This document shows positions 18,043 through 60,501 of a DNA stretch of 64,000 nt, one piece after another (positions within the stretch are counted from its first letter, which is position 1; each line of letters begins with the position of its first letter). A program made the translations under genes and the position numbers. The notes below the pieces were generated by a model, which was not told where the DNA came from, did no database searches, and saw only the letters and a program-made list of their open reading frames with translations. The DNA is from an uncultured virus (IMG/VR IMGVR_UViG_2667527737_000002) (Duplodnaviria; Heunggongvirae; Uroviricota; Caudoviricetes): the IMG/VR virus record IMGVR_UViG_2667527737_000002; one strand, written 5' to 3'.

Positions 18043-18694
18043 CTTTTCCAATAGGCTCTGAGATAAATGATTGATTTTGAGAGTATGGCACATGCTATCG
18101 GAGCCTGAGCAATTCCGGTGACCTGTGCGCTCTGCATGCAGCACTTTAGCTTTCAGGAAGTGACGCGTGAGACAACAAACAACTACCACGACGATTTCTT
18201 AAGTTCCACTTCCACCTTACCTGCGATAAGGGGGCACTTTCGTCCTGGTGCACACTATCAGGAGGAGGCCAGACAGAACATCAGAAGTTCCACCTAATTA
18301 TCCAAACCTGCACCGGTGTTTATTAACACTTGTTCCTTGTCATTAACCATTACTCATCTTTTGTCTGAAGGGCGGTGCAATATGTCATATGGATATTTCC
18401 AAATAATTTGGGTTTTAATGCTGCAAAATCTTCGGTTATTTTAACTAAATATCATATTTTGCTATTTCATCACTGCATTGATCAAATAGGGACTTGTACA
18501 ACACACAAAATATGCCTTTGGCCAACGTGCAAAGCTTTTACCTCCGTCAACCGGTAAAAATAAACAAATGCACCAAAGTTTCGATTTTGATTATCTCCTT
18601 CGAAAATAGGGGCTTGTAGGACGATCTTCATCTGCCATCATATCTTCCGCTACCGTGAAATTTTCACATGTAAGTGATTTAACATTAATTTATA

Positions 18695-18710
18695 CTGTAT
18701 AAAAAAACAG
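18695..18710. promoter_or_regulatory. LexA (SOS) box
   Basis: taCTGTATAAAAAAACAGta. Confidence 0.85.
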
Positions 18711-18737
18711 TATATGATTTGCTTCCGGGAGGTAGGG

Positions 18738-23698: not shown

Positions 23699-23796
23699 GG
23701 ATAGTTGGCTGAGTGGACGAAAGCAGTCGGTTGCTAACCGATCGGGTGGGTCATATGGCTGTCGCCCCGCAGGTTCGAATCCTGCACTATCCGCCA
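23699..23796 (+). tRNA. tRNA-Ser (GCT), long variable arm
   Basis: GGATAGT/ACTATCC acceptor, G discriminator, CCA, GTCGG-TTGCTAA-CCGAT, GCAGG-TTCGAAT-CCTGC. Confidence 0.9.
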
Positions 23797-56841: not shown

Positions 56842-56883
56842 TTGATATGTCGCCCTGTTAAAACTACTGTATATAAAAACAGT
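56842..56883 (+). promoter_or_regulatory. umuDC promoter with LexA box
   Basis: TTGATA-17-TACTGT; CTGTATATAAAAACAG at 56867-56882. Confidence 0.88.
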
Positions 56884-58793
56884 GTGCGCCGGGAGACCGG
56901 TTAGAGATCAAGGGGTGAAAGTCCCCGACCATTGAAGGACCAGCAATCCACAAGGTCCCCGAGTCATGCGTTGCATACCGCGAGGTATGGGGCGAAGCGT
57001 TGACAGGGGTGTTGACAGGCCAGCCATTGAGCCACGAAATGTATATTAAATTACCGGGTGCCGACGTTGTACTGTTAACGGAAGGCAACATCATAGGGTG
57101 CGATACTGCGAGTGCCACATGGACCCGGCGGGGTCTGAGACCCTGGCATGTCAATACGATCTCTACGCGGGAACCGGGAGATCTCCCCTCTGACCATCTG
57201 CCAGTGTCGGAGATGGCCCGCACCGGGAAGACGAGGAGTCATAGCCGGTGATGTACGGAGAGGAGAAGTCGGACTCGCTCATAGTAGCGGCGAAGCAGGC
57301 GAACAACCCGAAAGGAGCGGAGTCAGTGGAGCGAAGGAGCGGGGCCAAGGGGAACGCGGAACAGCCACACATGCGCCGGACACAGAGCCGGGAAAGCATG
57401 TCACAGAGGCTGTCACGCGTGCGGGAAGCTGCGAAGCAGCGGAAGAAAGAACGGTTTACAGCATTGTTCCACCTGCTGACAGTCGAAGCACTGGAAGCCG
57501 CATTCCTCTCCCTGAGCAGGAAAGCGGCCGCCGGAGTGGATGGCATCAGGTGGATGGACTACGCCGGAAACATGAAGAACAACATAACAGATCTGCACCG
57601 GAGGCTACATCAGGGCAGCTACAGGGCGCAGCCCGGCAGGCGTCACTACATCCCAAAAGCGGATGGAAAACAACGCCCGCTCGGCATCGCCTCGCTGGAG
57701 GACAAGATCGTCCAGTATGCGCTGGTGAAAATCCTGAACGCAGTCTATGAAAACGACTTTATGGGGTTCTCATACGGGTTCAGACCCGGGCGAAGCCAGC
57801 ACGATGCACTGGACGCACTGGCCACAGGGCTGGTACGCACTAACGTAAACTGGGTACTGGATGCCGACATCAGTCAGTTCTTCGACAGGGTGAGCCACGA
57901 ATGGCTGATCAGGTTCACAGAGCATCGGATCGGCGACCGGAGGGTAATCAGGCTCATACGTAAGTGGCTCACAGCCGGGACGTCGGAGGAGGGTCAATGG
58001 CGAGCAACGGAGGAAGGCACCCCACAGGGTGCGGTCATCTCACCGCTGCTGGCAAACATATACCTCCACTACGTCTTCGATCTGTGGGCGCATCAGTGGC
58101 GACGTCGCTATGCCACAGGCAATGTGGTAATGGTCAGATACGCCGATGACATCGTCATCGGGTTCGACAAACGATACGATGCCCGGCGCTTCCGTATAGC
58201 CATGCAGCGCAGACTGAGGGAGTTCGGACTCACGGTTCACCCGGAGAAAACCCGTCTGATGGAGTTCGGCCGCTTCGCTGCCGAAAACCGTGCCATCAGG
58301 GGAAAAGGCAAACCAGAAACGTTCAACTTCCTCGGGTTCACGCACATCAGCGGGAAAGATCGCAACGGCAGGTTCATGCTGATACGAAAGACCCGCCGGG
58401 ATCGGATGACGGCAACTCTGAAAGCCATCAAAGACGGTCTGCGAAGGCGCTGGCATTACTCAATCCCCGAACAGGGAAAATGGCTCAGGAGAGTGGTTCA
58501 GGGATACCTGAACTATCACTCGGTACCGGGCAACTTCCCCACCATGCAGAAGTTCAGGACACACGTAACAAACCTCTGGCGCCGGGCGCTCAGGCGCAGG
58601 AGCCAGAAGGATGATACGACCTGGACGAAAGCAAACAAACTGGCAGCCGCATGGCTACCAAGGGTTCGGGTTCTTCATCCATGGCCTGTGGAGCGGTTCA
58701 CCGCCAGACACCCGAGGCAGGAGCCCGGTGCGTAAATCGCGCACGCCGGGATCTGTGCGGGGGGTATCCGGTAACGGGTATCCCTACCGCGAC
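56884..58793 (+). mobile_element. Group II intron
   Basis: 5' GTGCG; domain V GAGCCCGGTGCG...CACGCCGGGATC near 58721; 3' ACCGCGAC. Confidence 0.92.
57248..58735 (+). CDS. ltrA: Intron reverse transcriptase/maturase, no endonuclease domain (start may be 57398)
   Basis: RPLGI, GFRPGRS, GTPQG, RYADD, FLGF. Confidence 0.95.
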
Positions 58794-58814
58794 ATTAATG
58801 TGAGCGAGACTATT

Positions 58815-59234
58815 ATGCAGTTCTACACGCCCGTTGAGTTACGTCAGATCATGCTGCTCCCGTTGTACAGCGACCTTGTGCAATGTGGTTTTCCAAGTCC
58901 TGCGCAGGATTACGTTGAGCAACGTATCGATCTGAACGAGTTGCTCGTTAACCACCCCAGTGCGACGTATTTTGTCAAAGCCGCCGGCGACAGCATGAAA
59001 GACGCCGGCATAGGGGAGGGTGATCTTCTGGTAGTGGATAGCTCAAGGACAGCAGTTCATGGTGATATCGTTATTGCTGCTGTGGATGGGGAATTCACCG
59101 TTAAGAAGCTGCAGCTGCATCCGCGGGTTCAGCTTAACCCAATGAACCCTGCATATTCGCCAATAGTCGTCGGTAGTGAGGACACTCTCGACGTGTTCGG
59201 AGTGGTTACGTATATCATAAAATCAGCTGGCTAA
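58815..59234 (+). CDS. umuD: UmuD (Pol V accessory subunit)
   Basis: [20 protein letters not shown]; 139 aa. Confidence 0.95.
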
Positions 59235-59235
59235 G

Positions 59236-60501
59236 ATGTTTGCGCTTTGTGATGTGAATTCATTTTACGCATCGTGCGAGACCGTATTTCGTCCTGACCT
59301 GAAAGGGCGTCCGGTGGTTGTTCTGTCAAACAACGACGGCTGTGTGATCGCCCGCTCGCCGGAGGCGAAGCCTTTCGTCAAAATGGGTGAGCCTTATTTC
59401 AAGCAAAAGGACATGTTTCGCCGGCACGGTATTATCGCGTTTAGCAGCAACTATGAGCTTTATGCCGATATGTCCAACCGAGTGATGACAACGCTGGAGG
59501 AACTGTCTCCACGCTGCGAAATTTACAGTATTGATGAGGCATTTTGCGATCTGACAGGTGTTCGTAATTGTCGCGACCTTACCGACTTTGGCCGGGAAAT
59601 TCGCGAGACGGTTCTGCGCAGGACGCACCTCACGGTCGGTGTCGGCATAGCCCAGACTAAAACCCTGGCAAAGCTGGCCAATCACGCGGCGAAACAGTGG
59701 CAGCGGCAGACCGGAGGAGTGGTGGATCTATCTAATCAGGAACGGCAAAGGAAGTTGATGGCTTTGCTTCCGGTGGATGAAGTCTGGGGGGTCGGGCGCC
59801 GCATCAGTAAAAAACTGGAGGCAATGGGCATTAAAACAGTGCTTCAACTGGCGGATACCGATATCCGTTTTATCCGGAAGCATTTTAATGTGGTTCTGGA
59901 GCGAACAGTGCGGGAGCTGCGCGGCGAGCCATGCCTCGGGCTTGAGGAGTTCGCACCGTTAAAGCAGGAAATCGTTTGCAGCCGTTCGTTCGGCGGTCGT
60001 ATCACGGAATACCATGAGATGAGGCAGGCAATATGCAGCTATGCGTCGCGCGCAGCGGAGAAACTCCGTGGCGAGCATCAGTATTGTCGGTTCATCTCAG
60101 CGTTCGTTAAAACCAGTCCCTTTACGCTTAACGAGCCATACTACGGAAACAGCGCATCATTAAAGCTGCTAACGCCAACCCAGGACAGCAGGGACATAAT
60201 CACCGCGGCGACGAAATGCCTCGATGTAATCTGGCGAGACGGACATCGCTATCAGAAAGCAGGTGTGATGCTGGGGGATTTCTACAGTCAGGGCGTGGCA
60301 CAGCTCAACCTGTTTGACGATAACGCACCGCGGAAAAATAGCGGAAAACTGATGGAGGTCCTGGATCATCTGAATGCCAAAAATGGGAGAGGGGCGCTGT
60401 ACTTTGCCGGCCAAGGAATCCAGACCGCCTGGCAGATGAAACGAGAAATGCTATCCCCGCGCTATACTACGAGGTTCTGTGATCTGCTCAAAGTTAGATG
60501 A
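59236..60501 (+). CDS. umuC: UmuC (Y-family polymerase)
   Basis: DVNSFYASCE, SNNDGC, YSIDE, SPRYTT. Confidence 0.97.
   Translation: MFALCDVNSFYASCETVFRPDLKGRPVVVLSNNDGCVIARSPEAKPFVKMGEPYFKQKDMFRRHGIIAFSSNYELYADMSNRVMTTLEELSPRCEIYSIDEAFCDLTGVRNCRDLTDFGREIRETVLRRTHLTVGVGIAQTKTLAKLANHAAKQWQRQTGGVVDLSNQERQRKLMALLPVDEVWGVGRRISKKLEAMGIKTVLQLADTDIRFIRKHFNVVLERTVRELRGEPCLGLEEFAPLKQEIVCSRSFGGRITEYHEMRQAICSYASRAAEKLRGEHQYCRFISAFVKTSPFTLNEPYYGNSASLKLLTPTQDSRDIITAATKCLDVIWRDGHRYQKAGVMLGDFYSQGVAQLNLFDDNAPRKNSGKLMEVLDHLNAKNGRGALYFAGQGIQTAWQMKREMLSPRYTTRFCDLLKVR

Follow-up and report, generated by a model that had tools for sequence, protein, structure and literature searches.

The natural homing site of the group II intron Kl.pn.I5 is, with a probability that we put at approximately 0.8, the LexA operator of Gammaproteobacteria. 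A copy of this intron, intact as judged from its sequence and probably active, was found in a 64,000-nt stretch of DNA from an uncultured virus of the Caudoviricetes (IMG/VR record IMGVR_UViG_2667527737_000002; the whole stretch is referred to as the window), in which it interrupts the LexA box of umuDC. An earlier note on this DNA had proposed that the operator itself is the homing site. This was borne out by 57 of the 62 distinct sites of close copies (among the matches listed), by the SOS genes downstream of the insertions, and by outbreak insertions next to sbmC and umuD. The collection of flanks for LexA-box enrichment, which that note had put forward as a check, was performed in this study, and the other copies were not located at unrelated sites.

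LexA boxes as insertion sites

We inspected seven plasmid records and about 300 other loci. The context-blind sample consisted of 80 loci from species-representative genomes (reached via the protein) together with at least 116 metagenome and 102 viral-contig stretches; the latter two sets were obtained by exact matches to the 5' end of the intron, and flanking DNA was taken for 80 loci each. Copies with at least 88% identity over the first 300 nt were regarded as close copies, and the matches listed contained 141 such instances with 62 distinct 25-nt 5' flanks, one intron-to-intron junction being left out.

The first seven copies checked, including that of the window, were all inserted in LexA boxes, and the other six, all on plasmids, occupied five further box sequences in both orientations. 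Among the distinct sites of close copies, CTG-N10-CAG ended at position -2 in 57/62, with the cut at CAGT/A, and CAG was present at -4 to -2 in all 62. The first base of the 3' exon (+1) was A in 46 and G in three of 49 distinct 3' flanks. The window box, TACTGTATATAAAAACAGT/A, fits the CTG-N10-CAG palindrome with a TA-rich spacer of the LexA operator of Gammaproteobacteria. Individual plasmid copies were found in a box upstream of a tyrosine recombinase (L001), in boxes where the intron is antisense to umuD (L002 and L005), and, on 12-kb plasmids of the ColE1 type (L004 and L493), in the promoter of a gene for a colicin-like bacteriocin.

This preference extended to several relatives. Those with 69% amino acid identity (L028 and L029) were inserted in the same type of box one base further on, after CAGTA; L027, of the same lineage, had six flank bases only (ACAGTA), too few to judge. 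Lineages at 80-83% nucleotide identity (L128, L133, L201, and L210) were also at LexA-type boxes. More distant relatives had unrelated targets, such as TTACGGTGACA in nine copies of one genome, and boxes were found at only 5 of 41 distinct sites in the group below 88% identity, which includes the 80-83% lineages.

The occupied umuDC operator and its empty alleles

In the window, the 5' exon ends with TACTGTATATAAAAACAGT (56865-56883, plus strand), nucleotides 1-19 of the LexA box of umuDC; then come the intron, GTGCGCC...CCGCGAC (56884-58793), and the 3' exon, ATTAATGTGAGCGAGACTATTATG (58794 onward). The earlier note had assigned 56842..58815 to the element; the intron itself accounts for 56884..58793 on the plus strand (1910 nt; GUGCG...GAC), its boundaries being set by more than 100 copies and by empty sites, and the remainder of that span is TTGATA, the box, and the umuD leader. 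The -35-like hexamer TTGATA (56842..56847, plus strand), presumably part of the umuDC promoter, is separated by a 17-nt spacer from TACTGT and was also present in empty alleles. Downstream of the intron, umuD (58815..59234, plus strand; Peptidase_S24; NF007621, polymerase V autoproteolytic subunit) is followed by umuC (59236..60501, plus strand; IMS domains; NF002955, UmuC, 858.7 bits).

Empty sites were sought on viral contigs using a degenerate umuD-leader pattern, which yielded 107 copies of the locus: nine with the intron, 97 with an uninterrupted box, and one without a box. Two viral contigs (e.g., L405, with an uninterrupted 20-nt box) carried the flanks of the window fused exactly (...AAAACTACTGTATATAAAAACAGTATTAATGTGAGCGAGACT... 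/ ...TACTGTATATAAAAACAGTATTAATGTGAGCGAGACT...), with no target-site duplication. The intron is therefore located between T and A of CAGTA, and its excision restores the 20-nt box, confirming the earlier proposal of a sense insertion at the edge of the umuDC SOS box. Among the umuD-leader alleles of the viral contigs (L386-L491), the last operator base of the 97 empty ones was A in 59, G in 37, and T in one, and the occupied umuD alleles had A at +1 in 9/9 (Fisher p = 0.025 versus empty alleles; the alleles are non-independent). Operator alleles ending in G may be poor targets for the intron.

Recognition of the target by the intron RNA

The D1 region was aligned for 17 family members and set against their 5' flanks. 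The loop of a D1 hairpin, ACUGUU (57071..57076, plus strand), pairs with AACAGU at -6 to -1, and the corresponding loop was complementary to the last 6 exon nt in every lineage, with covariation across 11 different targets, including UGUCAC/GTGACA, CUGACC/GGTCAG, UAAGCG/CGCTTA, and CGUAGU/ACTACG (loop/exon end). This covariation fixes the loop as exon-binding site 1 (EBS1), as had been suggested for ACTGTT at 57071-57076; the cognate intron-binding site 1 (IBS1), AACAGT, consists of the last 6 exon nt (56878-56883, plus strand), and EBS1 consequently reads the right half-site of the operator.

The second exon-binding site (EBS2), AUGUAUAU, is a single-stranded stretch (57039..57046, plus strand) pairing with the TA-rich spacer of the box (-13 to -6), in which IBS2 is located at about 56871-56876 (-13 to -8, plus strand). 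The previous tentative assignment, TGTATAT at 57040-57046, was correct in location, and the register of pairing differs slightly from that claimed. EBS2 also covaried: the homologous loop of L030, AGAUGUC, pairs perfectly with GACATCT at -14 to -8, and compensatory variants were found in L210 (AUGGAUA with TATCCAT) and L201 (AUGUUUA with TAAATAT). Positions T-12 (61), A-11 (60), T-10 (61), A-7 (59), and A-5 (60) were nearly invariant among the 62 sites, a constraint much tighter than the LexA consensus of E. coli boxes. The intron RNA reads the target from about -13 to -1 by base pairing. At +1, which is both the 3' exon start (58794, plus strand; IBS3/delta') and the final position of the LexA box, the choice is likewise limited to A. 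In related box-homing lineages, EBS1 remains directed at the invariant CAGT(A), and EBS2 varies to suit other spacers. Since the box is palindromic, either strand is usable, which explains why copies are found in either orientation relative to the regulated gene. A delta-delta' pairing between the U 5' of EBS1 and the +1 A was considered and dropped: this base is U whatever the base at +1.

The 14-mer specified by the RNA, WTATWNAWACAGTA, was searched for in 41 genomes of the family of G002 and gave 137 matches, compared with 65 for the reversed control. CTG was present at the right distance in 59 of the 137 matches (control, 0), and in 59/94 in genomes of at least 3 Mb.

Genes downstream of the insertions

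A scan of viral contigs anchored on the 3' end of the intron, with 2 kb taken downstream of each, gave 67 distinct 3' flanks (that of the window excluded). A same-strand open reading frame (ORF) started within 60 nt downstream in 48 of these. The most frequent family was phrog_3893 (79-amino acid phage protein with no function assigned; 16 distinct flanks), followed by DinI (nine), UmuD/Peptidase_S24 and UmuD-like proteins (five each), Tum-like proteins (DinI C-terminal domain, phrog_189) and phrog_698 (three each), GyrI/SbmC-like proteins (two), and a colicin-like bacteriocin, a tyrosine recombinase, and phrog_2100 (one each); the genes in two flanks had no family match. umuDC, dinI, sbmC, colicin operons, and tum of phage 186 are LexA-repressed in E. 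coli, its plasmids, and its phages. Judging from these gene families, the occupied boxes are real SOS operators.

Structure, identity, and activity of the intron

Ribozyme domains D1-D4 (56918..57143, plus strand) matched the whole model (1-225) of Rfam RF02005 (group-II-D1D4-6) with 186.6 bits (gathering score, 49) and an E value of 1e-54. The intron-encoded ORF (57248..58735, plus strand) specifies a reverse transcriptase/maturase of 495 amino acids (RVT_1, E 4.6e-47; TIGR04416, group II reverse transcriptase/maturase, 376.2 bits with a cut-off of 300). A Pfam search up to E 5 returned only RVT_1, so that no endonuclease domain was detected in the protein. Domain V (GAGCCCGG...CCGGGAUC; 58721..58753, plus strand) was assigned by reading the sequence together with its fold and has an AGC triad, in which G is opposite A, not U, as in relatives; its helix is kept in relative L046 via a change from CCGG/CCGG to CCAG/CTGG. 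No Rfam match of a separate domain V/VI family was reported within the intron. Domain VI (58757..58790, plus strand), with a GUAA tetraloop and a bulged A58786 (the 8th nt from the end), was assigned from its fold (z-score, -4.66) and sequence; A58786 is the putative branch point. The 3' end, GAC (58791-58793), is of the AY type, and the 5' end, GUGCG at 56884, fits GUGYG. With this canonical end, the ORF, and domains V and VI, the window copy appears to be intact, and it is probably active. The stop codon of the ORF (58733-58735) lies within the terminal loop of domain V, so that the ORF overlaps the catalytic domain.

The earlier note had suspected that the element may already be known, and this was the case. 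The window intron is identical at 1910/1910 positions to a copy in plasmid CP023932, which is named Se.ma.I1/Kl.pn.I5 in an excerpt of PMC6764390, and the Zbase naming convention, as quoted in a passage of PMC3522654, gives one name to introns with a divergence of less than 10%. It is the Kl.pn.I5 (= Se.ma.I1/S.ma.I1) catalogued in the Zimmerly bacterial group II intron database; a passage of PMC5517477 refers to Kl.pn.I5 as a group IIB intron. We found the intron in 4313 of 72,556 plasmid records, 3552 of them at an identity of at least 99% and 3778 from Klebsiella, and its first 217 nt in 215 of 5426 complete E. coli genomes. The section of PMC6965571 on copy number gives 11 copies in one strain of sequence type 11 and six in a related strain. 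Two de novo insertions of Kl.pn.I5 in a hospital outbreak are recorded in Table S4 of PMC8269217: both are intergenic, one 24 nt upstream of sbmC and the other beside umuD. In the relevant part of PMC3522654, Leclercq & Cordaux (2012) inferred a conserved homing site of Kl.pn.I5 from -25 to +10, based on three intergenic copies.

Several variations were observed among the copies. A widespread variant (L005 2496-2510, L014; antisense to umuD) has GTTCACC in place of GTGCGCC at its 5' end and occurs on IncR and other plasmids, in Citrobacter, Klebsiella, and E. coli; since it lacks the GUGYG consensus, it is probably a splicing-dead copy. In L003 (2526-5353), the intron is flanked on either side by a umuD gene, the two genes being divergent, and a given 5' flank was found with several different 3' flanks, and vice versa. 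Such shuffled flanks suggest homologous recombination between introns, rearranging plasmids or prophages; in short contigs, collapse during assembly could account for them instead. In RNA-seq contigs, single strains showed the intron joined to several different 3' sequences. Multiple identical copies can serve as substrates for recombination between replicons.

Head-to-tail arrays were also present, with at least four copies in one viral contig (L226-L229) and two in another (L266/L308). Their period is 1909, the junction is ...CGAC/GTGCG..., each starts at a LexA box, and the 3' exon of L308 begins with G. These arrays could be the result of re-insertion at an occupied 5' junction, where +1 is the G of the intron, or an assembly artefact. 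Contigs with a 100% identical intron, often of approximately 2 kb, occurred in assemblies labeled Streptomyces, Actinomadura, Microbacterium, Kitasatospora, Pedobacter, Arthrobacter, and Brachybacterium (L006, L007, L011, L012, L013, L024, L048, L077, and others), and most likely represent enterobacterial contamination, not true hosts.

Proposed SOS control and alternative interpretations

We consider, tentatively and at odds slightly short of even, that the lineage as a whole is specialized on the operator and thereby brings its RNA and reverse transcriptase under control of the DNA-damage switch of the host, being expressed and mobile at prophage induction, plasmid transfer, and fork stalling. 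EBS1 pairs with the right half-site AACAGT and EBS2 with the alternating TA spacer; reverse splicing into DNA probably takes place, by analogy with other introns whose protein has no endonuclease domain, at replication forks with a nascent strand as a primer. The sense copies, which are the majority and include that of the window, would then produce intron RNA and reverse transcriptase upon SOS induction, and the insertion would be nearly harmless owing to the ribosome-binding site of the host gene itself, 10-25 nt downstream.

The arrangement in the window is compatible with this proposal. The intron is preceded by TTGATA, the 17-nt spacer, and TACTGT, which overlaps the box; of the 20 box bases, 19 are retained upstream. 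The 20th base after insertion is the G of the intron, giving CAGTG, an ending that occurs naturally in 37 of the 97 empty alleles of this operator; LexA should therefore still bind and repress the occupied box. The umuD ribosome-binding site is kept, 21 nt downstream, so that translation from spliced or unspliced RNA would be possible. No joint across 56883/58794 was found in four RNA-seq runs; rare forms are lost from such contigs, and the locus has hardly any coverage in the raw-read run.

The following observations weigh against homing to the operator or its SOS control. Five of the 62 sites are exceptions to CTG-N10-CAG: three have GTG or ATG for CTG, and two (L100 and L198, one locus) lack the left half. 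EBS3 was not located in the alignment of relatives. The sites are phylogenetically non-independent, and the sample leans toward viral contigs. The excess of full boxes, 57/62 occupied (among the matches listed) versus 59/94 available, could have been produced by supply, selection against genic insertions, shared ancestry, and the viral-contig bias, with no protein contact needed. In 19 of the 67 distinct 3' flanks, there was no nearby same-strand gene, and the antisense copies at umuD (L002 and L005) indicate that SOS control is not universal. A consensus promoter scan called no plus-strand promoter upstream of the intron; the assignment of the umuDC promoter thus rests on inference. The sole candidate -10, TACTGT, overlaps the box, and, if it is used, transcription would start approximately 6 nt before the intron, leaving IBS2 absent and IBS1 barely present in the transcript, so that splicing could be poor.

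The alternative that survives best, although we regard it as unlikely, is a coincidence of sequence: EBS2, EBS1, and +1 would spell an AT-rich 14-mer that is commonest in LexA boxes, the intron would persist there because these intergenic positions are harmless, and its mobility would not be SOS-gated. LexA-type boxes already make up 43-63% of the genomic motif matches. The motif specified by the RNA is, moreover, sufficient for insertion: L100 and L198 possess it without CTG, and L151 keeps T-12, A-11, T-10, and CAG with T at -5, indicating (less fully in the case of L151) that the left half-site is not strictly required. The antisense copies and the blank promoter scan also fit this explanation. 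On the other hand, the share of full boxes is higher among occupied than available sites, to which selection and sampling could contribute; in 48 of the 67 distinct flanks, an SOS gene begins 10-60 nt beyond the intron on the same strand; and several lineages with different EBS2 are all on LexA boxes, which looks like a maintained specialization.

It is far less probable that the window copy is an immobile relic or that its protein now serves to regulate neighboring genes. Mutated variants of the 5' end (GTTCACC) do occur, but in the window copy the 5' end is the canonical GUGCG, and the ORF is intact, as are domains V and VI; this copy is also identical to a widely spread one, and fresh insertions of the element are documented (Table S4 of PMC8269217). 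Such co-option finds a possible precedent in an excerpt of PMC13712751 (mBio 2026), in which deletion of ltrA from an IncFII plasmid raises the expression of a neighboring gene, and LtrA represses the neighboring T1fr by binding CTTTTATAG in the T1fr promoter. If this ltrA is Kl.pn.I5, the insertion of the intron next to a LexA-like box would allow a different interpretation of the deletion phenotype described in that excerpt. The flank of L170, GCTTTATAGTGTATATATATACAGT/intron, resembles CTTTTATAG without matching it exactly.

Recognition of structure as in class IIC, i.e., of a hairpin formed by the box in single-stranded DNA, is compatible with the palindrome and with a protein that has no detected endonuclease domain and probably acts on single-stranded DNA at forks, but was largely refuted here, because the cut is inside the would-be stem with IBS1 as its 3' arm, EBS2 exists and covaries (a passage of PMC3522654 describes IIC introns as having no EBS2), insertions occur at sites without the left arm (L100 and L198), and relatives with other EBS sequences use non-palindromic targets.

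If the specialization on the operator and its SOS control are correct, Kl.pn.I5 hops among the SOS promoters of chromosomes, plasmids, and phages, and, as a side effect, rewires how umuDC, sbmC, and dinI, together with genes for colicins and prophage antirepressors, are expressed in clinical Klebsiella. The intron stands in front of genes for an error-prone polymerase, a gyrase inhibitor, a bacteriocin, and prophage induction in hospital strains, and from this position may affect SOS mutagenesis and the behavior of prophages or plasmids.

Comparison with known systems

Homing of group II introns is generally viewed as directed at one allele of a gene or, in class IIC, at structural motifs. The operator of a repressor as the homing site is a third strategy, which would provide an inducible promoter together with dozens of harmless landing sites per cell. 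The conventional IIA/IIB introns Ll.LtrB and RmInt1 use, as Kl.pn.I5 does, EBS1/EBS2/+1 pairing over about -13 to +1 and site-specific reverse splicing, and an endonuclease-less, fork-dependent route is known for RmInt1. Ll.LtrB and RmInt1 differ in that each recognizes one allele of one gene or insertion sequence, whereas Kl.pn.I5 recognizes a transcription factor-binding site in dozens of unrelated promoters and on both strands.

Class IIC and IIC-attC introns, which insert a few nt downstream of terminator or attC stem-loops, resemble Kl.pn.I5 in that their protein has no endonuclease domain and their target is not one gene but a generic regulatory motif that recurs in intergenic DNA; this common strategy makes many harmless sites available and connects the intron with the transcription signals of the host. 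The window intron belongs to neither class. According to a passage of PMC3522654, class IIC introns have no EBS2 and insert downstream of a hairpin; in contrast, the EBS2 of Kl.pn.I5 covaries with its target, the cut falls within the palindrome, and recognition is by sequence.

Prophage antirepressors under LexA control are mobile-element genes tied to the SOS response, and in integrons, as described in an excerpt of PMC8876359, the LexA-repressed integrase has a promoter with a LexA box, which couples mobility to SOS. These systems carry their own LexA box, whereas Kl.pn.I5 would acquire that of the host by insertion.

The element is already catalogued, and what is new is the application of IIB-style retrohoming to the operator of a repressor as a target class. 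The text of PMC3522654 contains no LexA, SOS, umuD, or umuC, and the homing site was not recognized there as an operator; the preprint version of PMC8269217 mentions neither LexA nor SOS. LexA or SOS targeting is likewise unmentioned in the available portions of papers naming Kl.pn.I5, Se.ma.I1, or S.ma.I1. No paper linking a group II intron to LexA boxes was found in open PMC and bioRxiv, with subscription journals and the Zimmerly database outside this search.

Other features of the window

A second LexA-type box, TACTGTATAAAAAAACAGTA (18693..18712, plus strand), is unoccupied. It had been regarded as a candidate empty target, and IBS1 and the +1 A are indeed present; however, it has A at -10, where 61 of the 62 occupied sites have T, so that pairing with EBS2 is interrupted and the box is a poorer target than had been assumed. 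CTG-N10-CAG occurs 32 times in the whole window (15.5 ± 3.5 in shuffles); only the boxes at 18695 and 56867 have a TA-rich spacer, and the others are GC-rich, unlike LexA sites.

The surroundings of the intron in the window resemble temperate Klebsiella phages, suggesting that the window is a prophage region, not a plasmid. An Rfam tRNA match in this prophage (23699-23793; 55.4 bits) spans 95 nt against a model of 71 positions, and may be a long-arm tRNA or a tRNA with an insertion.

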